33,523 bases of DNA, from contig JABANN010000387.1 in assembly GCA_013115125.1 (NCBI GenBank), forward strand, positions 1-33,523, in the 5' to 3' direction. The translations under genes and the position numbers were made by a program. Each line of letters begins with the position of its first letter. The stretch's first letter is position 1. This document shows, in pieces, positions 2,180-33,523 of this stretch. This DNA is from Perkinsus olseni. Lineage: Eukaryota. Below the pieces are notes generated by a model. The model was not told where the DNA came from. It ran no database searches and was given only the letters and a program-made list of their open reading frames with translations.

Positions 2180-3787
2180 GCAGGTCTGAGTTCTCCGGCA
2201 TCTGCGGTGGCCATTTGCTCATACTTTGAGACCTTTGGAGACATCGAGGCTGTGGATCTGTCGGGGATGTTCAACTCGGAATCGTCGAAGCTCAGCGCTG
2301 TATATATTAAGTGAGTTTATACGAGCTCCGCGGATCGAACCGGGGTCGTTTCGAGGACAGCCGTGGCTTGTGCCGTTAGGACATTTGTCCGCAGATATTT
2401 CGACAGCCGGGCGCCTTTCCTGGCGATGAACCATTTGAAGGGCGTAAGCAGCTTTGCCCCGAAGGTAGTCGCCCTGCCACACATCATCCTGACTCCCTGC
2501 CATCTCCGCTCCAGGTGGTCGAGGTGGACCCGCTGGGAACAGGCAAGCCTGAGACAATCGACATCATTAATGTATCCTTACGAGCTAGCCCTCTCTCTTG
2601 CGAGTCGAGGGGCGAAGTTCACATTACTAATTTACGCTGGAAGGTTGGCGAGACTCTGAGTTGTTGCGAGAAGTTCGGTGACATGTAAGTGTCGCAACTT
2701 CCTCGCTGACCCCCCCCCTCGTTCGAGTTCGATCTCCCGCTCAGTGAATTGATCAACGATCATTCCCCGTCATCCTCCTCGGCCTCAGCGTACGCATTGG
2801 ACTTGGACAGCGTGGCAACAACAGTCACTTTCTACGACAGCCGGGCTGCGGACAATTTTCTAAGGGTACGCGGAGCAACCGGCAGATCTCCCGAGGGTGG
2901 TGGGAATCGCGCGTCTTTAAGGTGCTCCAATCGGTGAAGGACATGCGCCGCGCGTCGTGCAGTTTGGGCGAGGAGAAACCCTCGATAGAATCTACGGTAA
3001 GTGGGAGGGGCCGAGGCTCGAACCTGGGCCTTTCGATTATGGAATACGTATCATATCCGCTAGGACATAGTCGTTCTTATGTTTAGGAGAGGAGAGCTAC
3101 GGTACCCGTGCTGACTTCGGGGATGGTGAAGAGACCTTCAGGTGGGCGGCGACAAGTTGATGACCCAGCGTATTATGCAAATCCGCAGCCTTTTTAGATC
3201 TTGTTGCGAGCATGTCGAGCATTCAGTCAGCAGCATTGCGAGATACTCTCCCGCTGCTGCACCACCCTTCAGAGCTGCAATCCCCGACTACCGAAGGCTT
3301 TACTGTGCAGCAAAGACTAGCAGACCTTTTCCGTCAGTACGACAGTTCGGTACACGCTCCCGCCAGCGACAGCGACTTGGCCGAGTATTCGGGAACTCCG
3401 CGAGACGCTAATAGAGTAACTCCAGCCAATGCCGCTGAGACTCTGGCCGTCATCATCGGTAGTCATCATCAGCGGGCTGCAGCGGGGAGCAGCAACAGTG
3501 CAGCCGCGAAGGAGGCGCGGGGCAAACTGGAAATTTCCCTGGCCGAGAAGGCGGCGTTGATGTGCGACACGGTTAGGGAGTGGGGCAAGCCCTTCAGCCC
3601 GCCCCAACCACCGCAAACGACGGTGGGGGAAGGAGGCCAACGGAGTGAAGATGGGGGCGTTGAGGAAATGCAAGATGTGCAAGTGGAGAAAGTTGGGATC
3701 TCCGCCGAACAAGAGGCTGCAACTGTATCGGATACTCCCGCAGTTGTTTCAGGTCGAACTGAGGAGACTCTCACGAGTGACAAGTGA
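2180..3787 (+). CDS. Mei2-like RRM protein paralog with RRM1 and RRM2 only (multi-exon; 5' end unresolved, probably ~1900-2100)
   Basis: Spliced peptides SYFETFGDIEAVDLSG...AVYIK|YFDSRAPFLAMNHLKG and CCEKFGDI|E...VTFYDSRAADNFLR match Mei2 RRM1/RRM2 patterns (FxxFGDI; FYDxRAA). GT-AG introns include 2311-2394. The last long ORF is 3212-3787. Confidence 0.7.
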
Positions 3788-4117
3788 GTCGACGTGCTTC
3801 GAACTCAAAGATACGTCTCGCACGCGAAAGATTCCGTGGTGTCCCTCAGGTCGCGACGAAGAGGTTCTTTCTGAGAGGATTGGCGCTCAGAGATGGTCAT
3901 CTGTCGATTACCCCATGGTTGCCGGATTGCTTTCGCTTTCGACGCCTTCGCCACGGGGGGTACTTTTCCTTAATGCCGTTAATCCCTCTGGAGGCTTGTA
4001 ATGGCGCGTGTCCTCGTTTTCACAAGCTCGTCGTAGCTTCATCTTTGTCTCACAAGTTGGCGAAATTCAGAGTTGCCGAATGGTGGATTCGAACCGGGCT
4101 CTCCTTAGTGTTACTGC

Positions 4118-6787
4118 ATGGCGTCATCCCCTCGGCCTACAAGCACGTCCGCAGATCGCCAGCAGCAGCAGCAGCAGCAGCAGCGTCCGTCGATTACCTC
4201 TGAGATCAGCGAAAGAGGCGGTGGAACTGAAAATCCCGGCCCAATTCCGCACCGGACTGGCGGTGGAAGCGAGGAAGCGTCTATGGAGGCCCCAAGTCTC
4301 GTCTTCCCGCCATACCTCGCACTAGGTACTGCTACCTCGGAATCTTCGACCCCCCCCCCCCGCAGTGATGACCGATGCTCTCCACAGGTATCGGACGACC
4401 AGTCCCATTAAGCATTCTGGCTATGTACTTCGAATCATTCGGTGAGGCGGATTTTTTGGACTGCACCCGAATGCTCACGGAGTCGTCCGACCCCTACGCT
4501 ATCCGACTAAGGTGACGAAAACAACAACAACAACGCCTGGTTCTACTTCTAACACGGATGTTTGCCAGTTTCTTCGACCGCCGAGTGACCGAGCAAGTTT
4601 ATCAACGTCTGCGAGGGGCCTCAAGTGATGACCCACGGGTAAGAAGATCTTAGCCTTCGATGGAAGGGGTTATCTCCCCCTCGCTTCAGTGCGCCGCAAT
4701 CTCGCGCGCTGGGCGGTCATCACAGCTGGCCGCCGAGTCGGGCGGTGGAGCCCCTATGGAGATTATCGCAATTACTTCCTGTCTAATGGTCGATGCGAGG
4801 TGGGCCCTCCGGCGCTGGATGCACACGGCTCACATGCTTGTCAGGTCGTCAAGACTCCGCGCAGCTGCTGACCCGAGAGTCGTCGATGTAGAACTGCTTT
4901 GCTGGTCTCTGCCGGAAGCAGTTGATTGCTGTTCAGAATTCGGAGCGTTGTAAGTAGAATTGTTGGTCGTGGGATTTGAACTCGGGACCTTCGTCGTCGT
5001 CAGGGCATCGGCCAACGGTAGACCCGTGAGTAGACTAATTATGGAAGCTTCTGAACTTTGCCGAGAGGTTGAATTTCACGACAGTCGTGCGGCTGAGGCG
5101 TTCCGCAACGCAGTGAAAGTTCTTGAAGGAGGAGGAGGAGGAGGAGGAGGAACAGCAGAAAGCTCGAGTTTTCCCGGGAGCCGGGAGGAAGCGCCCCAGC
5201 CGCCGCCGCCACCACCACGACCACCACTAAGAACAGCAGCAGGACCTGCAGGTAGGTCCACTGAGACGATTGTAGCTGTTGGACTGTTGCTTTCAACAGC
5301 GGTTCGAGCTGAGCAGCAACCTCCTGCGACACCCCTTCCTACTATCCCGACGGAACCTTTAATTAGTGCACGTACGGAGCCAGGTGGTGGTGGTGGTGAT
5401 GATCTGCTAACGACGACGGCGGGTGTGTTGCAACAGCAACAGCAACAGCCACCGTCACCTCGTCCAACAACAACGACGCCGTGGGGTGAGTTCACTGAAA
5501 AATGGAGCTTCCTGGGTTTGAACTTGATACCTTCAGGTGAACGGTCGGCGACCACTCCTCCGGCACCAAGATATCTGACCAGCCAGGTTGCGAGATCCCT
5601 GGCCCGGTTTTATCGCGCAGTTGGTGTTAGCGATTACAGAGGAGCTGGTGAGGCCTCTTCAAGAGCTCTTGGGCGATTTCTATCGTCGTCTTACCGGTCT
5701 AGGAGTGCCTTCGTCTGCATCTTCGACTGCGATCCAAGCCGCTGCCCCCTCACCGCGAGCAGCAGCGGCATCCACGTCCCCAGTGGTAACCATCCCGGGA
5801 ATGGAAGAATCTCTGCACATTACGGAAGTTGAAGGCGGGCTTGCAGTAACAACAGTAGCTGACGATTTGTGAAAAGTGTGGTATGGAACATTCCTTTCAG
5901 AACCGTACCACAGTGATGGTTAGGAACATACCGCCAGCGTACACTAGTTCGAGGTTGTTGCAAGAGATTCTAGAGACCCTGTAAGAGTACCATCCGTCGC
6001 CCAACTCATAGCGGAAGTATACCAGTGGTGATACTTTGGTAGGTTGGAGCAAGCGGGCGAGGATGAACTGGCGGCAGTAAACGCTGCCGTCGGAGCGCCC
6101 TTCGGAATAGACTTCGTCTATCTGCCCTTTAATCTTAAGAATAGAGCCGGAGTAAGCAGGCCTCGTCGCAGCAGTCCTTCTCCTCACGTTCTTATCATCA
6201 TCATCAGGTAAGTTACGGTTTCGTAAATTTAACGACTCCTGAAGAATTGCTGATCTTCCACGAGAGATTCAACCAGCATGTTTGGAGATCGGGGACGAGC
6301 AGGGCTCACAATGGTGGAGAGCGAAGACCGTGCGAGATGTCAGCGGCCAGGTTGCAAGGACAACAGGCACTGGTAAGGTCCAACGTGCTAAGTTGATGAC
6401 CGATCGTAATTGTCGCTCGTGCATCAGATTGAAGCATTCGTGAATCGTCTCCATGCTAAGTCGGAGCATATTCCTCTGCAAGCTCGTCCTCTGATTTACG
6501 ATCCTCGGGTGGTCCTATCGGCAGCGTCATCATCGTCATCATCCGCAGCTGCGTTGCCACTACCCACAATACCCCGATCGTTCCATGGGCAACAGCAGCA
6601 GCAGCAACGCTCGCCCACAAGTTATCCCGGATTCTCCCCAGTACCACCTCCTTCTGCGGGGTCGTCCCCTACACGATCAACACCGTCACACCACCATCAC
6701 CATCGTTCTCCGACGCGGCTGTATGGTAGTGGCAGGTCGGCTAGAGGCGCCCCCCCTTCCCAACAGTCGCCACGACCACGCGAATAA
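4118..6787 (+). CDS. mei2: Mei2-like RNA-binding protein (RRM1, RRM2 and C-terminal Mei2 RRM3), multi-exon
   Basis: Spliced product includes MYFESFGE...FFDRR and CCSEFGAL|...VEFHDSRAAEAF. It also has the RRM3 signature NRTTVMVRNIPPAYTSSRLLQEI...IDFVYLPFNLKNRAG|VSYGFVNL...SAARLQGQQAL|IEAF...RPLIY (from 5901). The stop is at 6787. Confidence 0.92.
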
Positions 6788-7132: not shown

Positions 7133-7168
<36 letters not shown>

Positions 7169-7973: not shown

Positions 7974-9850
7974 ATGGCTCATTATCAACATCACCGCTCA
8001 TCGTCGTTGTTCTATATAGTAGCCTCTCAGGCTCTCACGGGCTTTGACACGCTCGCTATCGCGAGGAGTTGGCCTCCCGGCGTCCTGGCGCCTGACCTGC
8101 TCAACGCCCAAGCAGCACAGATGGCCGCCGTAACGGGTTCCCCGAACTCAGAGAAGTCAGTACGGGCACCGTCCGAGCCAGCACGCTCGCCTGAGCAACA
8201 GCTGCAACAACAGCAACAGCCGCAGCCATTACAGCGGTCAGAGCCGCCACTACAACAGCTGCAGGAATCAAACTTGCCGCTACAACAGGACCCGTCATTA
8301 TCGCTGCAGTGGGACCCGTCACAGCAACATCCTCAGCAACGACAACAGCAACAGCAGCAACAGGAGCCGTCGCTACAACAACAGCCTCAACATCAGCTGC
8401 AAGATCCGCCAGTAAAACAACCATCACAGCAACCGCTGGAGCCGTTCCTACAACAACCGTACCCACCACAGCCACAACAGCAATGGCTACCACAACGACA
8501 GCAGTTACAACAAGAAGGAGGACAGGCGGGAGAACGATATCCCACCACTGGCGGGATGGGCCCCCCACCCGCTGTAGCACCATCAGTACCGCCCCAGCCA
8601 CTTCAACAGCAGCCCATCCCAACGGCACCTAGTCCCCAGCAGCCTGCTCAGCTACAGCCACTGCTTAGTGCACAGCCATTAGTCAATCCAGCGAATTTTA
8701 ATAATGTAGCGTTACAGCGGAGCGAAGCGGAGGATACGCCGAAACCCGCGGCTGAGAATGATACTCGAGGTGGTGAGTTGTTGTTGTTGACATCGGAAAC
8801 GGATCGAACGGGGTTCTGATTTCAGGTGATAATGAGAAAGCGAAGCTAGCCGGTGCTGGCCGTGGTACCTTCTCTTGGTGGTCTTGGCTGCTGATAGTGA
8901 TACTGATCGCCCTTGCCCTCGGGGGCCTTCTCTATTACACTGACTATATGTATCATAACCAACACTACGGCGGTATGCCGAACAAGGTCCTGGGCCTTGT
9001 TGTCTCCGTCGACCTGCGGACTAAGCTAGACCGCTCCTACTATGTGACGGTGCAGTGCGGCAAAGACGAGGAGACGGTGCTTGAAACCTCAGCACGCGGT
9101 GCCTCTGGGGCCATTCATTGGAACGCTCCCTTCCGCTACAGCCTGAGGCCCGAGAAAGCTCGCGATTTGCCCCTGCGAAAAAGCGTTGTGAAAGTTACTC
9201 TTTACCAGAGCAGCGATGAGGGGGCGAAATCCCTGGGCAGCGGGGAGATCTCCTGCAACAACCTCAAGGACGTCCGAATGACCGGCGGAGCGATGGAGAC
9301 TTTCAACGTGAACATCTCGCGTTTCGGCATGGTGACCGTGAAAGCCGGCCTTGGCTTCAGTGGCTGGTCCGAGCAGAAACTCGACAGACTTCATGCGAGC
9401 TGGCGAAAGAAACGATCGGAAGTGTCCTTCTGGACCAGACTGCTTCTAGCACCAGCAGAGGCAGTGCTGTTGATACTGAAGGGCGTCGAGGGTATCACTC
9501 ACCTTCACAACGTCATTCTCTCCACCTACGACCTCTTCTGCGCTGCCACTATCGCCATGCTCACTCTACCGTTCCTACTCAACTATGTCGGACTGAGCAT
9601 GTTCGACAAGTTGAAGTTCAAGGAACTGCGATGGACGTGGGCTACTTACAGCAGCCTTTCCGGGACGGGTGTCCTGCTCTGGCGAGTCCTAGGCACCTTT
9701 CCTGCCTTCTCCCATCTCGCCCTCTACGGTGGCCTTGGCCTGCTTGCCCTCCTCTTCATGTTGGCTGATTTCCGCGGAGAGTCCGGTTCCGGTGTCGTAT
9801 CTCGGGCAGTTGGTAAGGTCGCTGGCTGGTTCGGTGGGCTGCGTTCTTGA
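7974..9850 (+). CDS. Gln/Pro-rich N-terminus, TM helix, C2-like domain and C-terminal multi-pass membrane region (2 exons; intron 8773-8825; start may be ATG 8121)
   Basis: ORFs 7974-8819 and 8897-9850 join in frame through a GT-AG intron (TRG|GDNEKAK...WWSWLLIVILIALALGG). YYVTVQCG...ETS...IHWNAPF...VKVTLY...LGSGEI resembles a C2 beta-sandwich. Several hydrophobic helices follow. Confidence 0.75.
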
Positions 9851-11332: not shown

Positions 11333-11818
11333 TAATAAATTCTTTCATTCTAGTCGACAACTCGTACTAGCTCGACGGCACAGTCCTCGCAGTACTGGCA
11401 ATCTCATCACGAGCCGATCTGTCTTCCTGAGGATGGGGTCCTCCGTGCCACCGCTCCGCCACCTCCGCCGGAGTATTTCGACAGAGCTTTCTTCAACCGT
11501 GCTCCTGATGGGAGCATCGAGTCAGATCTCCAGCTCGTCAGTGGTCTCATCATCGAGCGTAAATAGGAGAATAGACGATTCAGATCAGAACCGATCTTCT
11601 AAACCACCCCTTTTCATAAGATGGCTCCCAAGCCGGAATTCTGCCAACCACTCGGCGATCAGCAACAACTTTGCAATATGGTGATGCCCTCGACTCATAA
11701 TTACTCGGCAGATAACGCTTCCAAATGCCCTCTGGACAATCTTATTTGACAGGGCCGTATCAACGCTAGAAAGCGTCCCCAACTTTGCACGTCGGCGTTG
11801 GACTATAAACTCACGCAT
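11333..11818 (-). pseudogene. Interrupted ORF of unknown function with two in-frame TGA codons
   Basis: ORF 11585-11818 continues in the same frame past TGA (DRF*SESSILLFTLDDETTDELEI*LDAPIRSTVEESSVEILRRRW...) for about 80 more codons. Confidence 0.3.
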
Positions 11819-12251
11819 ACCACTTCAAGGCGAACACTTCCTTCTCTCGGGATACAGTGTGGTGATCGAGCCAACTACTTTCGGTGGATAGCACGGCGAT
11901 GAGAACCTTGGCATCAACACAGATTTCTGGAAATCTGCGAGATCATTAAAACGGTCCAAGGATCCCAGCATTTCTTTGGAGCGGTAACCGAGTCGTCTGG
12001 GATTTTCCTCCGACCTGATGGACGAAATTATTGTTTGAGTCGGTCGAATGTATCACACAGGTGGCCGGTGGCACCGGTGCGTAGCTAAGGAGCAAAACTA
12101 CGACCTTTCCGCGATAAATTCTCGGAGTTTACATTCGCGAGCGTTTGAGTCTGTGAAGGCGGTCCGTACCGAACGACCACTATCTCGGCTAGGTCACAAG
12201 CATGGTGAATCACCATGAATCACCAGGTCACACCATGGCCTCTGAGCTAGA

Positions 12252-13775
12252 TCACCAATGGCCGGCTTGAATCACCTCCGATAGAAGCTTTCCTTGTACA
12301 TCGTACTGTACAATCGCCACGTCTCTCAGCACAGAGGGCTCCGCCAGTCCAATTTTCTCGATGGCCCGAGGTTGAGAGAGGAAATAGTTAGTCATGTTCC
12401 ACGCGGAAAATGAGCCATTACCTGCGGGGTCTACACCTTCCTCAACTACTGCATAAGAGTAACCGACGCCAGCCGGGACAAAGCAATCATTGGACGCGAT
12501 TAAATCGAGTATGAGTGGCATCTGAAAAGAACAACCGCGTCGAAATGCCAAAGTCGAGCACGAGCGCTCTGGCCGATCAGCGTAGAGAGAAGTCAGGGAT
12601 GGTAGAAGGTCTACAGTGAGAAGGGCAATTATGAGGATCGTCAGTGCGAGTTCCAGTCCAGCGTCGAATTCCGGCTTAGTCAGACTAGCACCGATGTACC
12701 ATGCTTCGAGAGGGAGTATCGTACAAGTGACAGTGACTCACCGTTATAACGAGTGCTTTGGGGTCCACACCAGCTCTAGTAGAGTTCTTATGATTTCTTC
12801 GGCGTTGGCATTTGTGTTGAACGCGGGCTTTGATGGGTCACAAGACGGCCATAGGGGAGCGAAGTACATATCCGCGATTTTCCCTAGTCTTTGTTGCAGC
12901 ATCCGTGGCCAGTCCCCAGGCCAAAACCTGGCAAAAAAGACATACCACTCCGCAAGAGTTTCTCGAGGGAGGAATTCTCTCAGAAAATAGCGGCATCCAT
13001 TGTTACCAAAATCCGCAGCCTCGATAGTCTTAGGACTGACCGTCACCGGATCTTCGATTCGCCCTACCCTCTGCCTGAGCGCTACGGTAGCGCCGCTACC
13101 TTCTGTGCTCAATAAAGTAGTTCAAACTCATCCCTCTTGAAACAAGTTACATGGGTGCTAGTCTGACTAAGCCTGATCTGGGCGTTGGAGCTGAAACTCT
13201 CTCACAAAGAACTCACCGCAATGCAGTATCCAGCCCCAGACACTTGAGTATCTCCATCATTTCCCTGATAATTCTCGTCGCCTCATCAAGGGTGGCCCAG
13301 TTTGGCACGGTGGCCGGTAACACATGCAGAATGCCGTGGATAGGAAATTTACTGAGGACTTTAGTCAGGGACTCGACGAGAAGTGTTTCGTTGAAGTTTC
13401 TATAGACATACCCATCCAACTTCAGTAAGATCTTTCCACCTCCCTCTTCAAGGCTATAAACTTTCCCTCATTCCACGTGGAATTCTTCCTTGGCGGCCAG
13501 ATAAGTTTCTCCACAATTTCACTCGTGTGGATAACCTCATATCCACCAAAGACGAAGTGTCTAGTATCCAAAGCAAGAAGGTAACCGAAGTACTCATCCC
13601 AGGTGTACTCCGGTGAAGGCTGTGTTCCGCCCAAGTAGTATGGCCATTCTTTGATGACCCAGGGTCTTCCTAGCTCCTTGTAAAAGTTAAGACTGGTCTT
13701 GCTGGTTACCTTCCCAGATGAACCAAGGGCGTGAAGGCAAAAGAACTGCTGCACGCCAGTCCACATGTAGGGCAA
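12252..13775 (-). pseudogene. Divergent GH18 chitinase-like gene with two frameshifts
   Basis: Motifs include HFVFGGY, GGKILLKLDG (cf. GH18 KvllsiGG), DTALR|FWPGDW, AFNTNA, AGVDPKALVIT|MPL, GYSY..GVDPAGNGSF and YFLSQPRAIEKI. Introns are 13216-12928 and 12741-12522. Frameshifts lie at ~13435 and ~12775. Confidence 0.6.
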
Positions 13776-14709
13776 GGAAAGCTCCTGAATACAATTCCGG
13801 CCGTTAACTGTTGCACAAGGCTTCGACCCACTATGAATAAGATCGACTACTGTAAGTCGTAGGAGTACGATGACGTACTCAATGACGGCACTTCAGCATG
13901 TGTCGAATTTTGGACCAAGATTCTGCTTCTTGCAATTCCAATCGGTAGTGACCTTGAAGTTGTTCAATTATGAGCGTAGCTTCAGCCTCGTACGCATGCA
14001 CGAGCACACCCTCGATCAGCTCTGACTATCAGATTGAACTTATCCGTACCTTCTTGGGGACCAAGTGTAACCCATACCAGTGACCACTCAATATGAGTTG
14101 AGGAGCCAAGGTCCTGTTCTCATTGGTATATGAGAATGATGTTCATGCACTACCGATCAACACTTGCGACCGAGATTATCAACGAGCGGTCCGCGTGTCC
14201 CCGCAGCTGGTCAGAGTACGCGAGTACATAGCTGATCTCTCTCGAACGGCCATGCGTGCCGACCGGGGTATTCCTTCCCACGGGCGAGTATTGAGGCTTA
14301 TCTTCCGAACTGTGTAGACTCATGTATCCAGAATAGAATCCAATGCGACATCTTCCTTAAAGATGATGTTGTGGCTGCTCTGTGTCACACACTTCAGACT
14401 AGATTGTGACTAGGATGACTGAAACGCACACAGTGTGTGCGGGTTTAAAGTCCAACGCCTACGACAGTACGGCTTAGTTAGACTAGCACCACCGACGGAC
14501 CTTTCTGAGGGGAATTGGTACAGACTGTTGAATAGGCTCTGTTCGTCAAGCCGAAGAATGTTGCTCTCAGAGCCAGGTTATCGTCGGCCGGGAACGTCCT
14601 TTCCTCCCGGCAGAATCCGCTTCCACAGCTGCGGGGGCTGTGCACGACCACAAACCCGAGTGGGTTTGGTGGAGACAGGCCTTCAGTCCGAGGAAAAATA
14701 AGCTCGGAT

Positions 14710-17870: not shown

Positions 17871-18049
17871 AGGGGATCATTCGGAATAACAAGTTACTGA
17901 TCCGTGGCACGATCGATCTTAAACGCATAAAAGATCAGAGCACGGCGAAATGACGAGTGATGAGCTTCTTTCTGATGGAGGTTACTGTGGCTGTAGCCGA
18001 CAAATGGTGACGCTGCTAATTTGACGTAAAAGACGCAGTTGGCAATATT

Positions 18050-23700: not shown

Positions 23701-24506
23701 AGGCCCCATTCCTCATCATGGTACCTCAAGAAGAAGATTTGGGGGAAATGTTCCACACAACTGACTGTCTGGCTGTATGATTCCACTTGCTAGTCTAGCT
23801 CACGTATTGAAATTACTACTGTAGTTCCAACTCAAGACCCACTGTGGATGACTCCCGCTGAGTCATCCCATCTAACTAAGATTATTATCATGCTCATAGA
23901 AAAGCCGACTTGCCCATTCATCGTGACATTATGAATGGGTGCCAGAGTTCGAGCCATCATCTCCAGTAGAAACCGCAAACCTGTGTTTTTCCAGTTTGGG
24001 GAAGCTCACTCTCTTGCGGATGAAACTAAGATTCCTGAGCTGTTAAGCTCCGAGTATGACAACAAAGATCGTGCATATAACTCCTATCCAGTTGGATTCC
24101 CCATTCGTATTATTTCCTCTGGGTAGGGTAATGCTAGTACTATCAACAACGAGGGGAGGGGCGTTGAATTTAACGACGGTCAAGATGCTTCTACTACAAC
24201 TTACACGATCACTACGATGCGCCCAAGGCGGTTCGACTACCCAACCTAGCTTGGCCGAGGTTCACGTCGAGAATAACTCATTTCATGACAGACAACACTG
24301 TTTTCCAACACAAGCCGGCGGTCAACGACATACATTACTGATCAACGGGGGTTGACCCAACAACCTTCCGATCCGCAGCGCAACGCTCTACCACTACGCC
24401 GCCGTCGCCACGACATCCTGCCCCAATACTACCGCACGTAGTCCTCCTTATTCGCTCCTGTATACCTCCCAGCCCATCCACATCTAGCTACTTCCGAATC
24501 CGACAT
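20781..24506 (-). CDS. tag: DNA-3-methyladenine glycosylase I (TAG family); exons 24506-24433, 23724-23593, 22952-22782, 22171-22123, 21625-21534, 20946-20781
   Basis: The spliced protein has RCGWA...YVRYHDEEWGLP...MFEMICLEGAQAGLSWATILAKR..Y.QAFNDFD...VVRSRRKIESVYRNA...YGSLCEYIWHF...SERVAKDMKARGFRMVGPTTVYSLLQAVGVVNDHLVSC. All Zn ligands (C, H, H, C) are present, and it ends with a basic PKRKR motif. Confidence 0.95.
22221..22490. mobile_element. hAT-like MITE (270 bp) in tag intron 3
   Basis: Imperfect TIRs TAGAGCTGGGCAAC / GTCGCCCACCTCTA. The 8-bp flanks ATATCGAG and CTATTGAG match at 6/8. There are many subterminal CCGTAC/GTACGG repeats. Confidence 0.75.
24346..24410 (-). other. Degenerate tRNA-like sequence (Cys-like) at the start of tag intron 1
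   Basis: The minus strand reads GGCGGCGTAGTGGTAGAGCGTTGCGCTGCGGATCGGAAGGTTGTTGGGTCAACCCCC: an A-box/D-arm, an anticodon-like loop and a decayed T-arm. The paralogous copy at ~27941-28000 reads ...AGTGGTAGAACACTGTGCTGCAGAT. Confidence 0.45.
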
Positions 24507-24855: not shown

Positions 24856-25947
24856 CTAACCTGAACCATCGAATGAGCGGCAGTCAATCCGAACCAAAAT
24901 ATTACCTATTTTCTGTATCTTTGCATCAGCCCTCTCATCTATCGACGAGCGTTTCGTCCTGACCAGCTCAGCGGGATTGTGACTTTCCCTTCCTGTAGGT
25001 GCTTCCACCCTGACCACCTCAATCTTCCTCACCTCGTCCGTACCCCAACTGTCCTTATTCAGAACAATCGACAAGGTGTCTTCCGAAGAGGTGGGGCAGA
25101 TCGCAATACGCGAATGATATCCCCCGAGCATCCCAAGCACCTCGTCAACAGTCACGCCTTCGTAATCTCTCCCATCAGACTTGACGCGCAATTGACAACA
25201 ATCCGCTGCATTCAATGCGCGATACATCCGAGAATCCGACCGATACGCGAAGACTTCGAACTTTACATAACTTGAAGAGACCGCCTCTCCATTGTGAGTG
25301 ACTGTGAACTTCACCTCGCCGTGTCTACCGCCGCGCGAGCCTTCAGTTCGGATCACAACTCGAAGCTTGCTCACGCCATTCCCTTGGGAAGAGTCGTTGA
25401 CATAAAGTCCCGGGTAAATCAGCAGTCTCGGAGGAGCCAAATAGTGAGAAGCATCGTTTCTGCGATGGACCTCTACCACCGTCGGCAGCTGCGTACCATA
25501 ATCCTGTTTGTGGAGAACGACCCGCAGCACCGACGCGAAATCCTCCTTTCTCGTTGGCGGGCAAACAGCGATCGTATCCGAGGTCACTTTCCTGAGTTGC
25601 AGCGGCGCTGACTGCCACGCCCATGGCCTGTATCTCAGCTCCCTGCAATTACGACGACTTAGTAAACCGCCTTCTATCACTCTTACGAGTAGGTTGGGTG
25701 GTGTCGTCGTCATATCCCCATCAGCCGACAGGAAACCAAAGCTAGCCAGAAGAATCCTGTTGCTCTTGGAGATCTCCATTGAGACCTCCACCAGGCCATC
25801 AATACCCGTTACATTGCTCCAATAATACCCAACAGGTGGTTTCCAATTGAGGTATGCTCGGTCTGGGCCGACATACCTATGGCTGGACAAGGTGGATGGT
25901 ACGATCAAGAGAAACGGTGACAAGATCTTGGATTGAAGAGCTCCCAT
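24856..25947 (-). CDS. Orphan two-repeat protein, copy A (MGALQSK...); probable 45-nt intron 24861-24905 just before the stop
   Basis: Long ORF and clear paralog of 28603-29661, with similarity starting at this ATG. Internal repeat: TIAVCP..RVVLHKQDYGTQ..VEV / RIAICP..SIVLNKDSWGTD..IEV. Confidence 0.8.
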   Translation of the reverse strand: MGALQSKILSPFLLIVPSTLSSHRYVGPDRAYLNWKPPVGYYWSNVTGIDGLVEVSMEISKSNRILLASFGFLSADGDMTTTPPNLLVRVIEGGLLSRRNCRELRYRPWAWQSAPLQLRKVTSDTIAVCPPTRKEDFASVLRVVLHKQDYGTQLPTVVEVHRRNDASHYLAPPRLLIYPGLYVNDSSQGNGVSKLRVVIRTEGSRGGRHGEVKFTVTHNGEAVSSSYVKFEVFAYRSDSRMYRALNAADCCQLRVKSDGRDYEGVTVDEVLGMLGGYHSRIAICPTSSEDTLSIVLNKDSWGTDEVRKIEVVRVEAPTGRESHNPAELVRTKRSSIDERADAKIQKIGNILVRIDCRSFDGSG

Positions 25948-26679
25948 TTCGTTATTCAAGGAGAGGCTAACAGCGGAGGAAGCACAGTAAGGAAGGAACA
26001 GCAGGAGCAGCAATCGGAGAGGTAAGAATAGGACCAGCGAGGTTCTTCGGAGAAAATGCGTGCAATAAGTGAGATTGTGAATAGACTGTGACAAGATTGA
26101 CACGAAAGATACGCATGAAGCAAGTTAACCTACGGTGTCCACTGGTACGCGTAAGATTCTCTTCTCAACCCTAGTGGTATTCCCAATAAAAGAAACCCTA
26201 TCTTCGCTCGAGCACAGACAGAAAGGTTCGCAGCGCTCCTTCGGGTAGAGCAAGAGCAGCCAGCCGAGAAGACTTCATTTATCATCCGCACCGCAGTTTG
26301 TGACAAATTACAAACACCAAATGACAGTTCAAGATTCACCACAACTTGTATGCCGTTTATAGTACCACATCACCACCAATCACCATCCACGTCTTGTCTG
26401 ATGGAAGGGGAATGGCGGCTTTCTGTCGTATACCAATATTGGGCTGCTCTCCCGCTTCGACTACTCGACGAGGATAGCCCGACGCTCACCTCGAGGAGAT
26501 CTTCATTACTCCACAGTAGACAAGGCCGAATCTAATCGTCGAATGGCGTTCATTCACGACAGTGTCATCACACTGGACAACGGTACACTACGAATTGTAC
26601 CATGAAACATCTTCTGTGTGAAAGGAAGACTCTCCCGCTAAGCTGTGCTAGACTCCTTTGCATACAAAAGAGGGTGAGT

Positions 26680-27785
26680 GACAACTGGTACGCGCTCGAG
26701 TTCGTACAGACTCTATTTGGTACCCCTTTCATCCATACAACAGTATCCCGTACAATTCCAAGTTGAGACTCCCAACCCGTACAGTGGACACTGTCTAACG
26801 ACAGGGTTGGCAAAAACCGGACTAACCGTCGGTGACTACAATGGTCAATGCGACCTGTGGTCGGCTGGACTAACAGCCCTGGTACTGATCGGATGATCAC
26901 ACCTGGCCGGGAGAAAAGAAACCCGTACAGTGATAAGTTGTACATTGACAGTTCGTACAGTTTCCAGTGATACCAGGGTGGCTGAAGGCTGAGGAAGAAT
27001 CATTCTTCCCCTCCCCAATAACTCCCGTTTTAGCTGCCGGGAATAATGGCCGGCGTGGAAGGGCCCCTTCCGAAGGGGACGAATGGACCTCATTTGGGGA
27101 ACTATCATAAAAATCGCCCTTCGCCCACGAAAACCCAAAATCGGACCCGGAAAAGTTTTCCGGGAAAACGCTTAGGAACCCTTCTGGCAGCCCTCTTGTC
27201 CGCTAGACCAGAGAAAATTAGTGTATTCACCTTCGGCCCTGTCATTTTTCATGATTCATCCGTTCGGGGGTGCGCTCATCGAAGAGCGCAAGTACGGGGG
27301 CCCCTAGTATGCCACTCCGCTATCTAGCCTCTTATCATCATCGACACAACCGGTCGGACCGGTGAGGCACGTTTTCATCGTAGCGGAGGCGTTTTATATG
27401 AACATGATAGCAACAAAGGCAGGAGTCGCTCAGAAATGAAGGTTCGTCGATATTTCATACATAATTTGTATAATTCCCGAAAAGGCAGATATTATTCCCC
27501 GAAATAGCTCCTTTCTTCCCTTCCCCGGGCATATTCCCGGGAACAATGGGAATAATTCCTCATTTTCAGCCACCCTGAGTGATACAGTGTTGCTCAGTAC
27601 AGTATTCCCAGATACAGTTTCAAGCCGTACTGTGATAAGTCGTACAGTATCCAGCCGTACAAGCGGCGGTACTCTATTCGGTACCCCTTTGAGCCATACA
27701 AGAGTAGCTCGTGCAGTTTCAAGCCGTACAGTGATAAGTCGTACAGTATCCGGCCGTACACTGACAACCCGTACACGATCCAGTG
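26680..27785. repeat. CGTACAG-rich repetitive element with internal direct repeats, interrupted by a hAT MITE
   Basis: GTTTCAAGCCGTACWGTGATAAGTCGTACAGTATCCRGCCGTACA at 27617-27661 and 27716-27760. CTCTATTYGGTACCCCTTT..CCATACAA at ~26711 and ~27672. Confidence 0.7.
26974..27577. mobile_element. hAT-like MITE (604 bp) with perfect TIRs and TSD
   Basis: 13-bp perfect TIR CAGGGTGGCTGAA / TTCAGCCACCCTG. Perfect 8-bp TSD AGTGATAC at 26966-26973 and 27578-27585. Subterminal TTCCC/GGGAA repeats and no transposase. Confidence 0.92.
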
Positions 27786-28024
27786 GTAAACGCTTTACCT
27801 GTATGACACATTCTGTACAGCCGCCTCCTCGCGCGTATCGCGGTAATTTTCTACAGGAGTTATTTCGAAGGCAATGACGCCTTAGAAGCCACTCGAGAAT
27901 AAATTCGCTGCCCAAACCAACTCACCTGCCGAGCTTACAGGACCGATTCGACGAATCGCCAATCTGCAGCACAGTGTTCTACCACTACGCCGTAGTAGCC
28001 ACAATTTTCACCCCGTATTACTAC

Positions 28025-28602: not shown

Positions 28603-29661
28603 CTAACCTGAACCATCGAATGAGAGGCAGTCAACCCGAACCAAAATATTACCTATCTTCTGTATCTTTGCATCAGCCCTCTCATCTATCGACGAGCGTT
28701 TCGTCCTGACCAGCTCAGCGGGATTGTGACTTTCCCTTCCTGTTGGTGCTTCCACCCTGACCACCTCAATCGTCCTTACCTCGTCCGTACCCCAACTGTC
28801 CTTATTCAGAACAATCGACAAGGTGTCTTCCGAAGAGGTGGGGCAGATGGCAATACTCGGACGATATCCCCCGAGCATCCCAAGCACCTCATCAACAGTC
28901 GCGAAGTCGACACCATTATCACCACCTGGTTCGGCATGCACTTTGCAGCAATCTGCTACATTCAGTGCGCGAAATAGCGCGTAATTTTTCCGATACGGGA
29001 AAACCTCAAACTTAACAAAGCTGGAAGATCTCACTTCTCCATTCTGAATAACAGTGAGTTTCACTTTGCCTTGTCTCCTGCCGCGGGAACCCTCAGTTCG
29101 GACATCAACTTGAAGCCCGCTCACGCCACCCAGTCGGAGAGAGTCGTTGACGTAAGTTCCCGGGTAGATTAACCGTCGCAAAGGAGCCAAGCCTTTGGGA
29201 ACATCATTCTCCCGACGAACTTCTACTACCGTTGGCAGCTGCGTACCATAATCTTGTTTGTGAAGAACGATCCGGTAAGGCGGTCTGTCCACTTTCCTTC
29301 TTGACGGGCAAACAGCGATCGTATTAGAAGTTACTTTCCCGAGTACCACCAACGGGGACTTCCAGACCCACGGTCTGTGTCTCAGCTCCCAGCAAGTATC
29401 CCTACTTAGTGGACCATCTACTCTCACTCGTACCAGCTCGTTAAGCGGAGTCGTCATCGTCCTCCCATCTCCCGATAGGAAGCCAAAGCTAACCTGAGTA
29501 CAGTTGTTGCTGTCCTGCACAACATCCATCGACAGCTCCGCAAGGCCTTGGACGCCCGTCATATTGCTCCTATAAAACCCAACGGCTGGTTTCAAGCCGC
29601 CACTATAGACCGGTACGATCAGGTGGGCGAGTGGTAACACCTTGGACGGAAGGGTCCCCAT
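28603..29661 (-). CDS. Orphan two-repeat protein, copy B (MGTLPSK...); probable 45-nt intron 28608-28652
   Basis: Long ORF and paralog of copy A, with a nearly identical C-terminal ~85 codons. Confidence 0.8.
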   Translation of the reverse strand: MGTLPSKVLPLAHLIVPVYSGGLKPAVGFYRSNMTGVQGLAELSMDVVQDSNNCTQVSFGFLSGDGRTMTTPLNELVRVRVDGPLSRDTCWELRHRPWVWKSPLVVLGKVTSNTIAVCPSRRKVDRPPYRIVLHKQDYGTQLPTVVEVRRENDVPKGLAPLRRLIYPGTYVNDSLRLGGVSGLQVDVRTEGSRGRRQGKVKLTVIQNGEVRSSSFVKFEVFPYRKNYALFRALNVADCCKVHAEPGGDNGVDFATVDEVLGMLGGYRPSIAICPTSSEDTLSIVLNKDSWGTDEVRTIEVVRVEAPTGRESHNPAELVRTKRSSIDERADAKIQKIGNILVRVDCLSFDGSG

Positions 29662-30220
29662 CTTAGTATTCTCGGGCGAAAACCCAGGAGAAGGAAGCAA
29701 ACACTGTAGAAGTGAGGGAACTGCGAACAACTCCGCGAAAATTATCCAAAGTATGTTGGCGAGAAAACGGAAGGGGAAAATACTGCTAAGTGAGCAGAGA
29801 AGGATTGATAATGCTGCCGCTATTTTGAGGCCTCGACCTTCTCTTTGACAATCAGCTGAAGACGAACCCGCAAGCGAATATTTCGGCATGGAGTGGTATG
29901 ACTGCCGAGAAAGTGTCACGGCAAATTCAACCGCCCAACCAAGTATTGGGTTCGTAAGGAAGATTTTAATCATGGATTGACTAAGACAAGGGCGACTAGA
30001 AGATACGCACAGGTCAACCTACAATGTCCCCTGATAGACGAAAGATTCTCTCCCCAACCACCCACACAAGATTTCCAACAACACAAAACAACCACTGTCT
30101 CCATCACTAGCACACGCAGAAAGAAACGGAGCGCTCCTTCCGGCGGCGAGCACAGTCGACCTGGTACATACTACAAATCTTGCAATCTTGCATTTTCTCA
30201 ACGTTCCTCTGTACCTTCTA

Positions 30221-32742
30221 TCAGCTCTCCTGCGCTGCTGGCTGTGGTTGGCGTTTCTCCGAACGCAGCTTGACGTTGAAGTTGTGCACCCTGGCAATAT
30301 TCACCTGACCGACCAGATTCTCCTCGCACACAGGCCGCTCGCGCGAAGAATAACTCAAGAAGTAACGACGAGAACGATCGAAGTCCTCGAGGAAAATAGC
30401 GGAAAGGAAAAGGAAAAAACAAGGAAACCCAGATAGAATATGTAGCGAGCACTTGCAATGACCGATAAAATTCATTGTAATCGAATAAAAATGAACTCAA
30501 CAACGGTTCGTTCTGCCAGCCATTTCATCAAGACCAGATCCAGATCCCAGGGTCGATTCGACCGACCCGTCACCATCGCCCTCCCCCCAGCTACTACCTC
30601 GGTTGTAGTAATCTGATCTCTAACGACAGCGATCCCCTGTTCCAAGTCCGCCAAACTTTTCCGCGCACTCGAGTCGTTCTCATTCAGGAGGTCCGCTGAG
30701 AATGGTGTCCATATTTTCCTGTTTGGATATTTCCGGAAACCCGAGGCGCTGGGCCACAGTGATGAGTGCTGCTCGACGAGCCATGCTAATAATTTAGAAC
30801 CCCCGATTTTGGACACTGATGGCTTCACGATGCTCAGCCTTTTGCTCGCAATCGTGGAAGCAAGGGAGCCAATTTAAATGAAGAGAAAAACGACCTCCGA
30901 CATATTCGAACGGGGCTCGCACGGTTATCAAGCATGCGCACTACCACTAGAGTAACCCTCTACACACTTACTTGCTTCATCCAGTTTGTACTCCAACAGT
31001 ATGTTGGCTCCCAACCAAAGACAGACCGAATCAATCTCCTACAAAATGAGCCAGACTATCCACCCAGTACCAATCTCGCCATGATCTCGATCTTCATGAA
31101 ACAGAGTGCCCACTACTAAAGACAGTGAATCAACCCCCCCAAAAAAAGACAGGAGCATTGATAACGCTACTCTCCCGCAACCGCCCGCTCGACTTCAGGA
31201 ATCCGATCTCGATCCATCTGACCACCACTTTCTACTCACCCAAGGCGACCCCCCAGCCAATCCGTAGAAGACTGCTTGCGGATAAAACCAAGAAAATTTG
31301 AAATTAAAAAAGCGCACGGATATCGAGGTTCCAAACTGGTTGTCGATTTACCTGTGGATTCACTTTGGCATTGGCGTGAGCGTTGTCAGTGAGAGGGAAG
31401 CGACACCGGTACCTAAACTTGCCCATGAGTAACAAGCCATACCACATTTCCCCCAAATCATTACTCGCCGACCCCCTCCTCTTTCTGTTTCTTCAAATAC
31501 GTAACCGTCTCCTTGGCCTGCTGAATATCCGGCAGCTTCCTCTTAATCGAGCGACGCTGCGACATGAGCTGCTCATTCATATACTGATACCTGCGCGCGC
31601 CACGAAATTACTCTACTACCGAGAAGCCTTGCCCCAGTATAGAGCCGGCTAATTTCGTGGCGCGTGACGATCTTTCCACACTCTTCCTATAATCATCCGG
31701 TTACTCTATCCCCACATACTTGCTGAGAAGCTCCCTGAGCCCGCCAAGGATGGCCATCGGATCTCGCTTAGCGGTGAAGACTTCCACATTCTCCTGACCA
31801 TACAAACAGATATTCTCGCATATCTTAGGTTCACCCACGTCCTCCACAGATTCGACCCAAGGCACAAGCTTCTCTCGCACCATCAGCATCTTAGTTTAGT
31901 CCACCCTCCGGGAATTCGAGCCGCGCAGATTTTCACGAAACCATTTGGTTTTTCTCAGGAAACACGACGACTGTCAAGTTCATTTCTGCAGATATTTTTA
32001 ACATATTTTTATAATTTTATATTGATAATTTTTATATTTTCTGATTTTTGATATTTTTTCCTTGGGACGGCCTATACATCGATCTGGGCCAGCCGCTATC
32101 TTCTCCTGTACTACACCCACTCCACCTAGCAATCGAACTTGCTCGATCGATTGCTCGCGTAATTTTTCCACTTTTAAAATTATTTGTCCACTTCACAATT
32201 TTATGGCTCTTTTGTCGCCAAAGCTTCATCACATTCTGTAGTAAAAGTAACCTCCACCAGGCGAGAATTAACAGAAAAATTTTAATCAAGAAAAGAAGAG
32301 GATGGAGACAGTCGCCCTGCATTCCTTCTCAAACCTGGTCAGGAGACACTCGTATCCTTGAGAGTGCGATGATGAGACGTATCACTATCATGACTGCCTT
32401 CGACGGAACGACTGTGATTTTTTCGTAAGAGAAAGATATCGCCAGATGGGAGGGTGACGGTTATTTCTCTTCATCAGAATTTTTAGACCAGCGGGATAAA
32501 AATATTTCATGCGCGAAAAAAATAGAAAATAAATGGTTTATGAGCTGAAAAATAGTGGAGGTTGAGAAGGGACTTCGCAAAGTGAAAAGATACGCTGACT
32601 TTATTACAATGAATTTGGCTCGTGGGATGTTGCTGTTTGCCTTTCCTTCCTCTGCGGCGCCGTCGGTATCAGCCGAAAGGACCAGCTCGGCAGGGTCGAA
32701 GGGCTCGTACTCGACCTTTTTTGTATCTTGCACGCTGGACAT
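30221..32742 (-). CDS. PFDN3: Prefoldin subunit 3 (VBP1/Gim2); exons 32742-32608, 31793-31720, 31590-31465, 31412-31352, 31038-30972, 30695-30598, 30304-30221
   Basis: The spliced protein IPRAKFI|ENVE...LRELLSK|YQYMNEQL..KRKLPDIQQA...RFPLTDNAHANAKV...VCLWLGANILLEYKLDEA|TDLL..N...RDQITTTE|VNIARVHNFNVK matches the PFDN3 signature. Confidence 0.95.
30893..30958 (-). other. Degenerate tRNA-like sequence (Ala-like) near the start of PFDN3 intron 5
   Basis: The minus strand reads CTAGTGGTAGTGCGCATGCTTGATAACCGTGCGAGCCCCGTTCGAAT (cf. tRNA-Ala TGGTAGAGCGCATGCTT...GTTCGA), followed by a T-run. Confidence 0.45.
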
Positions 32743-32955
32743 TGAGATTCTCTCCCGAAAAGGAACAACGCTGAGCTGTTTAGAGGCGGAATATGCTTAC
32801 CGGCGCCCGGAAAATGCTTCCGGCGCCCGAAAATTTCTTCGCGCGCCCCAAAATTAATACTTCTATGCCCATAAACTACTTTCGAATACCCATGGCGCCT
32901 AAGGCGCCGCTGAGGAGGTTTAATCTCTCTAAATTACGTCCCTTTCCTCTGCAGA
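32743..32955. promoter_or_regulatory. Candidate bidirectional promoter with clustered GGCGCC / GCGCSCSAAAATT (E2F-like) motifs
   Basis: Lies between the PFDN3 start (minus) and a plus-strand pyrimidine-AG acceptor followed by ATG at 32958. Contains CCGGCGCCCG twice, GCGCGCCCCAAAATT and GGCGCC twice more. Confidence 0.45.
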
Positions 32956-32957
32956 AC

Positions 32958-33523
32958 AATGGCAGATGAATTATTGGCCGTCAATGGGAATGGCATCTAT
33001 ATAGTGTAGTCACCCTGTCGTTCGTGTACAAGTTGCCCGGGCGGCGATGGCATTTCCTCGTGCGCGCTCCTGAATCAATCATGCTTGCCTCTAGCCTTTT
33101 TCTTCGGCGTACAACCATTATACACCTCGCGCCCCAAAATCTGACTCACTTTTGTCCCGAAAGATCTCGCCCCAACGGTAGGGGCCCTACCCCAGCTCCT
33201 CAAGGTGGCGCGGGGGTATCTGGTCGTCGCTTCAGTGTCAAGCTCAGCATCGTCCTACTTCCTCCATCCCCTACGAGGAGACGGACTACGCTAAGGTCGT
33301 GGGAAGTCGTACTCGGTAGTAGCGCGATTCTGGTATCCGGACTGTTAATGCAGTAGTCAGAGTGAATGAGAAATACCTTAACCAGGGATCGATGCGCGGT
33401 AGCGCGGGTTCGATACTATATTACTGTGACGCCGGGCGTGCGCGATCCGCAACGGTTGTCCCTTTTTTGTTGTTGAAGTTGTCCTTCCGAGACTCCTTGT
33501 GAGTTCTATTCCGATAGTTGTGA
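32958..33523 (+). CDS. 5' part of a possible divergent multi-exon gene, product unknown
   Basis: CCTTTCCTCTGCAG then ATG GCA GAT GAA (MADELLAV...). Further exon-like segments follow, and it runs off the window. Confidence 0.3.

Follow-up and report, generated by a model that had tools for sequence, protein, structure and literature searches.

tRNA-gene-like fragments in introns of three protein-coding genes of Perkinsus

tRNA-derived SINEs are tRNA-related sequences that carry Pol III boxes and lie scattered through a genome, and in the split tRNA genes of Nanoarchaeum and the permuted ones of Cyanidioschyzon, where 3′ halves are encoded away from 5′ halves, both kinds of half are intact and can be matched to a partner. 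CeRep3 of C. elegans consists of tRNA-gene-like relics with Pol III boxes that are enriched in introns of protein-coding genes and unused as tRNA genes; as an annotated class of repeats, it carries both boxes, and its TFIIIC occupancy has been measured. Within the genus studied here, a report on P. marinus (PMC3706591) describes five tRNA types with more than 500 near-identical copies, many disrupted tRNA genes, and Dada transposons, which use tRNA genes as insertion sites. In introners, as described in excerpts of two reports (PMC9860276, PMC7789003), a recurring sequence forms whole short introns of different genes in either orientation; the families are near-identical and often have terminal repeats and target duplications, and the excerpt of PMC9860276 contains no mention of tRNA, SINE or Perkinsus.

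The stretch analyzed here (33,523 nucleotides; the window) is Perkinsus nuclear DNA close to P. olseni. Three of its ORF pieces were 96%, 79% and 95% identical to P. olseni proteins (the second alignment includes an unspliced 48-nt intron; the mapped exons reach 96–100%), and the protein of gene model P0005 was 93–100% identical to the window over mapped exons. Eight main tRNA-like pieces were found, spread over three protein-coding genes. The original prediction had placed most such pieces in introns, which held for all eight (by RNA contigs for two, by annotation only for six), and it had called the genes unrelated; there are three of them, two being neighbors. The genes, introns and relics are as follows.

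2183–6784: conserved Mei2-like RRM gene (gene model P0005)
2311–2394, plus strand: 84-nt GT..AG intron of the Mei2-like gene, in the P0005 model and spliced in the RNA-run contigs X7, X8 and X11
2996–3085, plus strand: also an intron of the Mei2-like gene (90 nt); contigs X7, X8 and X11 show it spliced (the cut possibly lies 1 nt further right)
4065–4140, minus strand: Val-tRNA-like relic, aligned end to end to a panel Val tRNA (score 29)
4950–5003, plus strand: annotated 54-nt intron of the Mei2-like gene; its junction restores P0005 (119/123 residues)
17.2–20.7 kb: two neighboring head-to-head orphan genes, P0003 and P0002
17291–17342, minus strand: annotated 52-nt last intron of P0003 (gene model; junction 56/57 residues)
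18500–19365, minus strand: annotated 866-nt first intron of P0003
18769–18803, plus strand: Phe-like relic, antisense in the 866-nt intron (score 39, E=1.5e-5)
18969–19006, plus strand: piece antisense to P0003 in the 866-nt intron (score 33, E=7e-4, 21 HSPs)
19778–19825, plus strand: annotated 48-nt first intron of P0002 (gene model; junction 81/81 residues)

Like CeRep3, the pieces are intron-enriched tRNA-gene-like relics with Pol III boxes; unlike CeRep3, they are heterogeneous, and most have no A-box. Typical introns in the window measure 42–66 nt, the shortest seen being 42 nt. The RNA table as listed comprises 15 of 104 joints; at other junctions, the annotated protein was restored (119/123, 56/57, 81/81 and 76/76 residues). 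Likeness was scored against a reference panel, distinct from Perkinsus's own tRNA set, of 50 tRNAs that ARAGORN called on three metagenome contigs; the shuffled maxima lay between 23 and 30, and the coding-exon maximum was 25. A score above 25 was reached by 5 of 23 short and three of five long introns versus 0 of 400 exon 55-mers, fractions that are not to be extrapolated since the window was chosen for the feature and the pieces themselves prompted the choice of gene models for two of the three genes. When the window was compared with the panel by blastn, eight clusters had E<=0.05 (lowest 4.5e-9), whereas the reversed-window control gave three HSPs (minimum E 0.039).

None of the pieces is a complete tRNA, as originally noted. 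ARAGORN with default settings detected no tRNA gene in the window, and Rfam gave no tRNA match at E<=10 for the window, two sub-regions and three stretches of 45–103 nt. Lowering the thresholds of ARAGORN yielded two unrelated calls and subsequently 75 spurious ones containing long "introns"; the sole related match in Rfam was a tmRNA T-loop (11 nt, 3.6 bits). Every T-arm is defective, 0 of 9 hairpin matches having a 5-bp T stem with a 7-nt loop. A search for a 5′ half located 5′ of the eight 3′ pieces gave 0 of 8 significant matches (best p=0.06, at the 4085 piece). The tRNA likeness has no fixed breakpoint; it begins at about tRNA position 3 (4085), 26 (18785), 34–35 (17305), 39 (19784) or 43 (18969).

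In the Mei2-like gene, intron 2311–2394 is nearly filled by an antisense tRNA-like piece (panel score 29 versus the exon maximum of 25). The box at 2332–2341(−), originally described as a bare B-box, is indeed a B-box but is not bare: an A-box-like 12-mer lies at 2373–2384(−), with 31 nt between them. Intron 2996–3085 likewise holds an antisense piece (panel score 31), with a B-box at 3015–3024(−), an A-box-like 12-mer at 3057–3068(−) and 32 nt between them; its donor GTAAGT immediately adjoins the tRNA-like 3′ end. The two 12-mers are identical at 11 of 12 bases. The Val-like relic at 4065–4140, with a B-box at 4085–4095(−) and a D-arm-like stretch at 4120–4137, is antisense within an annotated 250-nt intron (3960–4209), a stretch that is coding, not intronic, in a second gene model (P0004). 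Positions 4961–4993 of intron 4950–5003 correspond to an antisense variable loop, T-arm and acceptor 3′ strand (score 31; blastn cluster 4969–4992(−), E=0.01, nine panel tRNAs); splicing of this intron was not seen among the RNA rows listed.

The 52-nt and the 48-nt intron of the orphan genes are both made up largely of sense pieces that, judged by sequence, are clearly Thr-tRNA 3′ halves, and in both the donor GT falls on anticodon positions 35–36. Piece 17305 (score 54 versus a shuffled maximum of 24; the best four panel matches all Thr) aligned to tRNA positions 34–67 with one deletion in the T loop (blastn E=4.5e-9) and, over 33 columns, departs from a foreign Thr tRNA at one mismatched and one deleted base. 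This piece does not lie 3′ of a GT donor on the plus strand and is not antisense, as had been assumed, but sense in the minus-strand intron 17291–17342; the T6 run was located at 17297–17302, followed by the acceptor CATTAG. Intron 19778–19825 corresponds to tRNA positions about 35–72, and piece 19784 (score 51, blastn E=6.5e-8) aligned to positions 39–72 of a Thr-GGT tRNA. A 7-bp inverted repeat lies near the ends of this intron, and a low-depth contig, probably of an RNA run (kind guessed) and carrying no strand information, is unspliced over 19567–19822 and covers all but the last 3 nt of the intron. The pieces at 18785 and 18969, previously left unassigned to introns, both fall in the 866-nt intron 18500–19365; one RNA-run contig (X7) is unspliced over 18601–19740, inside and past this intron. 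The Phe-like relic consists of an anticodon-loop-like stretch, variable loop and T-arm and ends after the T loop, and the piece at 18969–19006 consists of variable loop, T-arm, acceptor 3′ strand and discriminator, then ATTTTAT.

By likeness, two of the eight pieces are Thr-like, one Val-like and one Phe-like, the others being not assignable. Their 40-nt cores matched panel tRNAs at 28–35 bases over 35–39 aligned, whereas the best match between elements was 30/37 at comparable length (28/30 over a shorter alignment), and an alignment of seven pieces had about 25 columns around the T-arm in common and no more. Every piece resembles real tRNAs more closely than it resembles the rest of the set, so the eight are not one SINE. 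This agrees with the original view that different tRNA species are represented, and the collapse into a single SINE family that would speak against it was not observed. The pieces share with tRNA-derived SINEs the dispersed tRNA-related sequence and the Pol III boxes, but have no common tRNA-unrelated body, tail or consensus and mostly no A-box half; a tRNA-derived SINE family was rejected.

On balance, we consider it probable that the pieces are leftovers of the very large set of tRNA genes in Perkinsus, retained only where they are spliced out. The large and unstable tRNA gene population of the genus would throw off copies or fragments, and those within genes would survive only where the spliceosome takes them out of the mRNA. 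Amplified tRNA genes of the kind described for P. marinus (PMC3706591) are a plausible source. Because the T-arm is common to all tRNAs, it would outlast the rest and stay recognizable longest, which would give the 3′ bias; "3′ halves" would also arise because introns of 42–66 nt are too short for a whole 72-nt tRNA and because, in both sense cases, the intron begins inside the tRNA-like sequence. The Thr anticodon NGT followed by AAG would supply GTAAG, the local donor consensus, and at 17291–17342 the terminator-like T run may act as pyrimidine tract before the AG, so that a Thr 3′ half would behave as a ready-made intron of ∼50 nt. Against the relic reading, the likeness is skewed to the 3′ part of the tRNA (seven of eight significant clusters at tRNA position >=35, one in the D-arm), and since 5′ halves are undetectable (0/8), uniform decay of whole-gene copies does not fit. 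Three pieces were found beyond those originally listed: 4085–4095(−), 4961–4993(−) and a D-arm-like (5′ half) relic at 24382–24396(−). No gene model is known at the last of these sites; the relic is identical to positions 14–27 of a panel Thr tRNA at 14/14 bases (E=0.01, 7 HSPs) and has a paralogous copy at 27977–27987(−), the pair forming repeat family D14.

Dada insertion sites were considered and rejected: the likeness begins at positions 26–43, not 8–13, and Pfam scans of 15 ORFs of the window and of two proteins gave no matches, whereas Dada leaves an element of 4.7–11 kb. The tRNA genes split by Dada are those for Ile, Leu, Gly and Tyr, with a TAGCTC duplication in the A-box reported for the Ile and Tyr families (PMC3706591), whereas the clear cases in the window are Thr-like.

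Of the three explanations originally offered, the most interesting is that introns arose by capture of tRNA fragments; it is compatible with the data but rather unlikely. Pieces of tRNA genes would have been inserted into coding sequence and created short introns by an introner-like route; the Thr 3′ halves may have done so in sense by offering the GT of the anticodon as a donor, and whole or half copies in antisense. As in the introners of the excerpts (PMC9860276, PMC7789003), whole short introns of different genes would be formed in either orientation: 5 of 23 short introns consist largely of a tRNA-like piece (∼73/84, 73/90, 33/54, 38/52 and 36/48 nt) versus none of 400 exon 55-mers, and because the shortest intron here has 42 nt, the remainder is too short for an earlier working intron. 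With acceptor 3′ strands that differ, and with a panel Thr tRNA nearer to each than the other case is, the two sense introns look independent, yet both have the donor at anticodon positions 35–36. Unlike introners, they have only the tRNA core in common (within the window). No target-site duplication or terminal repeats were seen by eye at confirmed junctions, and the 5′ half is not detectable in upstream exons. Moreover, deletion pressure on an intron that took an insertion could look alike, and the five introns are a small, selected sample of which three (4950–5003, 17291–17342 and 19778–19825) are known from gene models only.

That the B-boxes, some with an A-box, are retained through binding of TFIIIC and organize or insulate chromatin as extra-TFIIIC sites would be distinctly unlikely. 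The B-box consensus of such a site was found at four exact GGTTCGANYCC sites, GGTTCGA is intact in seven of eight pieces (4972–4992 has GAGTTCAAATCC instead), the T-arm is kept better than the remainder, and the pieces in 2311–2394 and 2996–3085 have little in common beyond the A-box-like 12-mer and the B-box at tRNA spacing. TFIIIC binding to sequences of this kind would have a precedent in C. elegans. However, the pieces were found through the B-box, and its integrity thus reflects ascertainment; variable loop and acceptor strand, although outside the B-box, are also kept, and sites with only a B-box score as chance.

Chance matches to a short GC-rich motif are a very improbable account of the set, since motif counts exceed those in shuffled sequence. 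GGTTCGANYCC occurs four times (4085, 17315, 18978 and 19793) versus a mean of 0.14 and a maximum of 1 in 100 shuffles, GGTTCGA 12 times versus 5.18 (maximum 11), and RGGYCNNNGGTTCGA with up to one mismatch five times versus 0.63 (maximum 3), its four exact copies all lying within 17319–19799. T-arm-like hairpins numbered nine at eight places, versus 2.9 ± 1.8 (maximum 7) in 200 first-order Markov simulations. The five pieces of variable loop plus T-arm first reported were recovered at the coordinates given, with the motif above chance, and for the four strong pieces chance is ruled out (E 7e-4 to 4.5e-9 versus a control minimum of 0.039) and an origin from tRNA is shown, although none of the pieces can yield a tRNA. 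It does hold for ∼2726, 8801, 33407, 21380 and the exonic site 5301, and probably for 7570 and 24230. Three of these had been listed as bare B-boxes.

2685–2744, plus strand: 60-nt intron with the weak box ∼2726 (panel score 23)
8801–8810, minus strand: weak box in intron 8774–8825 (panel score 22)
33407, plus strand: weak box; best panel match 33385–33414 (E=0.55)

They are indistinguishable from chance, the first two lying below the exon maximum of 25. Split or permuted tRNA genes, whose 3′ halves would be expressed and joined to 5′ halves from elsewhere, are close to refuted: although 3′ halves prevail and 17305 and 18969 precede T runs like Pol III terminators, the window halves, unlike those of Nanoarchaeum and Cyanidioschyzon, have defective T-arms (no 5-bp stem with a 7-nt loop; 17305 lost one T-loop base), varying start points and no matching 5′ half adjoining any piece, neither Rfam nor ARAGORN calls a tRNA, and the folds, none of them a cloverleaf, are unremarkable against shuffles (z-scores from −0.15 to −2.0 for the tRNA-like strand, reaching −2.6 for the sense strand of a single intron).

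Piece 17305 speaks against the reading of the pieces as relics filtered by splicing. Its kept part being almost unchanged compared with a foreign Thr tRNA, it is either young or constrained; constraint would indicate a functional role, for instance in binding TFIIIC.

The five named pieces joining a variable loop to a T-arm lie exactly where the original prediction had placed them, and GGTTCGANYCC, for which a comparison with shuffled controls had been proposed, was found four times in the window (0.14 expected, control confined to the window). GGTTCGA occurred 12 times (5.2 expected from shuffles) and RGGYCNNNGGTTCGA, with at most one mismatch, five times (0.63 expected from shuffles); all four exact matches to RGGYCNNNGGTTCGA fall inside 17.3–19.8 kb. 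T-arm-like hairpins numbered nine versus 2.9 ± 1.8, none of the nine being canonical. The weak ones among the supposed bare B-boxes did not hold up, scoring only 20–23 against a panel of tRNAs, which is noise.

This panel came from metagenome contigs that were scanned for the donor-plus-T-arm motif; the three loci returned were all ordinary Thr tRNA genes, none of them from a perkinsid, and the three contigs carrying them supplied 50 ARAGORN-called tRNAs. One of these contigs (L001, 1–6263) holds an unusually dense array of 44 tRNA genes on both strands, a nearly full set. When the main pieces, named by coordinate, were aligned locally to the panel (maxima from shuffles, 23–30), the scores were as follows.

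Panel scores of the pieces and the tRNA each resembles
17305: 54; best four matches all Thr, positions 34–67, one base deleted in the T loop
19784: 51; Thr-GGT, positions 39–72, acceptor 3′ strand included
18785: 39; Phe-like
18969: 33; not assignable to one tRNA
2996: 31; not assignable to one tRNA
2311: 29; not assignable to one tRNA
4085: 29; Val-like, almost full length

When the panel was compared with the whole window by blastn, eight clusters reached E ≤ 0.05, of which seven corresponded to tRNA positions ≥35, including a new one at 4969–4992(−), and one to the D-arm, at 24382–24396(−). The reversed window, used as the control, gave three HSPs (lowest E, 0.039). Judged by sequence likeness, the tRNA origin of the four pieces in 17.3–19.8 kb (E from 7e-4 to 4.5e-9) can be taken as beyond doubt, and that of four clusters at E ∼0.01 and of the piece in 2996–3085 (E = 0.14) as probable rather than certain. 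The 40-nt cores shared 28–35 of 35–39 aligned bases with a panel tRNA, and the best pair of elements, over a comparable length, 30 of 37. Because the cores are closer to panel tRNAs than to each other, they do not form a single SINE family, as the original prediction had it. That none is a complete tRNA was likewise upheld: ARAGORN made no calls, and Rfam searches of the window and sub-stretches, three of them 45–103 nt long, were without a tRNA match at E ≤ 10. ARAGORN at lowered thresholds produced junk only (e.g., at 17305–17464 a "tRNA-Tyr" carrying an 89-nt intron). Folds of eight stretches contained no cloverleaf (z-scores −0.15 to −2.6).

Three ORF pieces of the window matched P. olseni proteins (named hypothetical by the source) at 96%, 79%, and 95% identity; the 79% alignment spans an unspliced 48-nt intron, and the exons alone are 96–100% identical once mapped. 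Three gene models resulted when the fetched proteins were mapped to the window.

Gene models in the window
2183–6784 (+): Mei2-like RRM gene (P0005, 974 aa, exons 93–100% identical)
19482 down to 17181 (−): orphan gene (mapped protein P0003)
from 19615 (+): orphan gene (mapped protein P0002), head-to-head neighbor of the former

The name Mei2-like derives from C-terminal residues read by eye, with no family scan behind it; P0007 is an orthologue of this gene (∼45% identity). Pfam searches of the orphan proteins gave nothing above cut-offs. The 17.0–20.2 kb stretch was present in full in DNA runs of one organism. Splice joints were taken from contigs of sequencing runs guessed to be RNA by the tool (X7 and X11) or unclassified (X8), which revealed at least 14 GT..AG introns of 42–549 nt among the 15 of 104 joints listed.

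Introns that contain pieces
2311–2394: 84 nt, RNA-confirmed
2996–3085: 90 nt, RNA-confirmed
3960–4209: 250 nt, annotation only, junction restores the protein; contains 4085
4950–5003: 54 nt, annotation only, junction restores the protein
17291–17342: 52 nt, annotation only, junction restores the protein
18500–19365: 866 nt, annotation only, junction restores the protein; contains 18785 and 18969
19778–19825: 48 nt, annotation only, junction restores the protein

All eight 3′-type pieces are thus intronic, as the original prediction had claimed for most of its own pieces, and the two that had been left unassigned, 18785 and 18969, sit in the annotated 866-nt intron. The placement of 17305 antisense, downstream of a plus-strand donor, was wrong: it lies in sense orientation in the last intron of a minus-strand gene. 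Among the 15 of 104 RNA-table joints listed, none corresponds to 4950–5003, 17291–17342, or 19778–19825. A contig from a probable RNA run crosses 18601–19740 without splicing, and a low-depth contig, also from a probable RNA run, extends over 19567–19822 with no splicing (strand unknown). The region of 4085 is coding in one model of the Mei2-like gene (P0004, 4042–4146) and intronic in the other (3960–4209); the translation in P0004 of the antisense strand of a Val-tRNA–like relic could reflect exonization or an annotation error.

A panel score above 25 was reached by none of 400 exon 55-mers, by 5 of 23 short introns (29, 31, 31, 54, and 51), and by three of five long introns; two of the three gene models were fetched because of the pieces, and these intron fractions are no genome estimate. 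One GGTTCGA, at 5301, is exonic. A depletion of pieces in exons is the outcome expected from selection against insertions of any kind.

The two Thr-like pieces coincide exactly with their annotated introns (48 and 52 nt), the donor GT being the second and third anticodon bases. In the Thr tRNA alignment, 17291–17342 starts with GTAAGC, i.e., anticodon bases 35–36 followed by positions 37–40, and then runs through T-arm, acceptor strand, and a T6 run to its end, CATTAG; 19778–19825 has the same layout, with the anticodon-like triplet GGT. GTAAG stands at the place of the donor in five of the six Thr tRNAs of the panel. Since the two pieces have unlike acceptor strands and each is nearer a real Thr tRNA than the other piece, they look like separate events with the same final arrangement, and by this comparison the two Thr 3′ halves were apparently independent. 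The three antisense pieces occupy most of their introns (54–90 nt). In 2311–2394 and 2996–3085, an A-box–like 12-mer (11 of 12 bases equal between the two) is separated from the B-box by 31 and 32 nt, respectively, which is tRNA spacing, and beyond the tRNA-like stretch there is only the donor hexamer and 4–12 nt at the acceptor end. In 4950–5003, an antisense 3′ half makes up 33 of 54 nt.

Other repeats were also observed. An ∼18-nt motif with the consensus TAATTTCGTGGCGCGCGA, which we take to resemble E2F-type sites, occurs 15 times on both strands (at most two mismatches to a 12-nt core), with copies at 16670, 18617, 19126–19137(−), 19287, 19524–19535(−), 19961–19972(−), 20047–20058(−), 20075, 23122, 31596–31607(−), 31653, and 32834, among others. 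The copies concentrate between the two head-to-head orphan genes; one lies within the intron 16649–16696, and three hold an 11-mer identical to positions 7–17 of a panel Met (CAT) tRNA. DNA-run contigs break at this motif, which is therefore multi-copy in the genome. At 19803, 19284, 19304, 17153, and 19955, several DNA-run contigs cease to match the window, which indicates multi-copy short motifs. A second motif, CTTGCAATCTTGCAAT, often followed by TCCTCAACG, has nine matches with at most three mismatches, two overlapping pairs among them, and every match lies on the plus strand irrespective of the direction of the adjacent gene (copies include 16444, 16986, 17153, 19203, 20832, and 30179); DNA and probable-RNA contigs break at its sites 16986 and 17153–17178. 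At 11790–14463, 31-nt inverted repeats (81% complementary) bound a 2.67-kb stretch. In a DNA-run contig, 11814 is joined to 14433 through 14 letters of other sequence, and the segment 14173–14839 shows raised DNA depth; the arrangement resembles a DNA transposon accompanied by short deletion derivatives. Pfam searches of its ORFs gave nothing above cut-offs. Tandem paralogous ORFs at 24856–26124(−) and 28603–30018(−) (stop-to-stop lengths 422 and 471 aa; DNA identity 71–96%, C-termini nearly identical, no Pfam family) share a D-arm–like tRNA relic in their downstream regions, and between them, at 26913–27790, lie arrays of a unit of ∼15 nt (D5; copies 62–96% identical to the reference).

The pieces can reasonably, if not securely, be read as relics of tRNA genes from a tRNA-rich genus, kept inside genes only where they are spliced out. 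PMC3706591 reports five tRNA types amplified to more than 500 near-identical copies in P. marinus, and transposons that target tRNA genes. Simple decay does not fit the undetected 5′ halves and the 7:1 ratio of 3′ to 5′ blastn clusters: in a statistical test, none of the eight had a detectable 5′ half upstream (best p = 0.06). Possible reasons are the foreign panel, local introns shorter than a tRNA, insertion of fragments only, or selection on the B-box region. The tRNA likeness begins at positions ∼3, 26, 34–35, 39, and 43, depending on the piece, which argues against a single processing event such as anticodon-loop cleavage. Candidate 5′ halves read by eye in 18785 and in the exons that precede 17305 and 19784 were unsupported by the test (p = 0.92 at 17305). 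An 8-bp acceptor-like pairing of 17305 with a stretch ∼75 nt upstream has an estimated chance probability of ∼0.01–0.04 for a single piece and is no longer significant once all eight are considered.

A bolder reading, which we consider rather unlikely, is that pieces of tRNA genes are recurrent raw material of new short spliceosomal introns in Perkinsus. A sense insertion of a Thr tRNA 3′ half would then be spliced out as an intron of ∼50 nt, its anticodon NGT with the following AAG providing the donor GTAAG and, at 17291–17342, a terminator-like T run the pyrimidine tract; antisense copies of whole or half tRNAs would fill introns of 54–90 nt. About one in five short introns of the window carries a tRNA piece, in a selected sample that is no genome estimate. 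To our knowledge, most other documented cases of intron origin concern transposon-like introners, from which tRNA-based intron gain would be a distinct route. No paper in the literature searched described tRNA pieces in Perkinsus introns or the use of an anticodon as a splice donor. By term search, tRNA, SINE, and Perkinsus go unmentioned in two introner papers (PMC9860276; bioRxiv 10.1101/2020.10.14.339549), and the passages of PMC7789003 examined contain no tRNA–intron link and no Perkinsus introns.

Binding of TFIIIC by the pieces, which has a precedent in C. elegans (PMC6950938) and would add a new case to it, seems improbable. Split tRNA genes, also put forward by the original prediction, are close to excluded, as no tool calls a tRNA and no 5′ half was detected upstream of any of the eight pieces.

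As relics, the pieces would be ordinary genome debris, and they would reveal traces of the very large Perkinsus tRNA gene population within genes as well as in tRNA arrays. The coincidence of Thr halves with introns and the filling of introns by antisense pieces, if true genome-wide, would point to a simple and testable way in which an intron-rich alveolate acquires introns.
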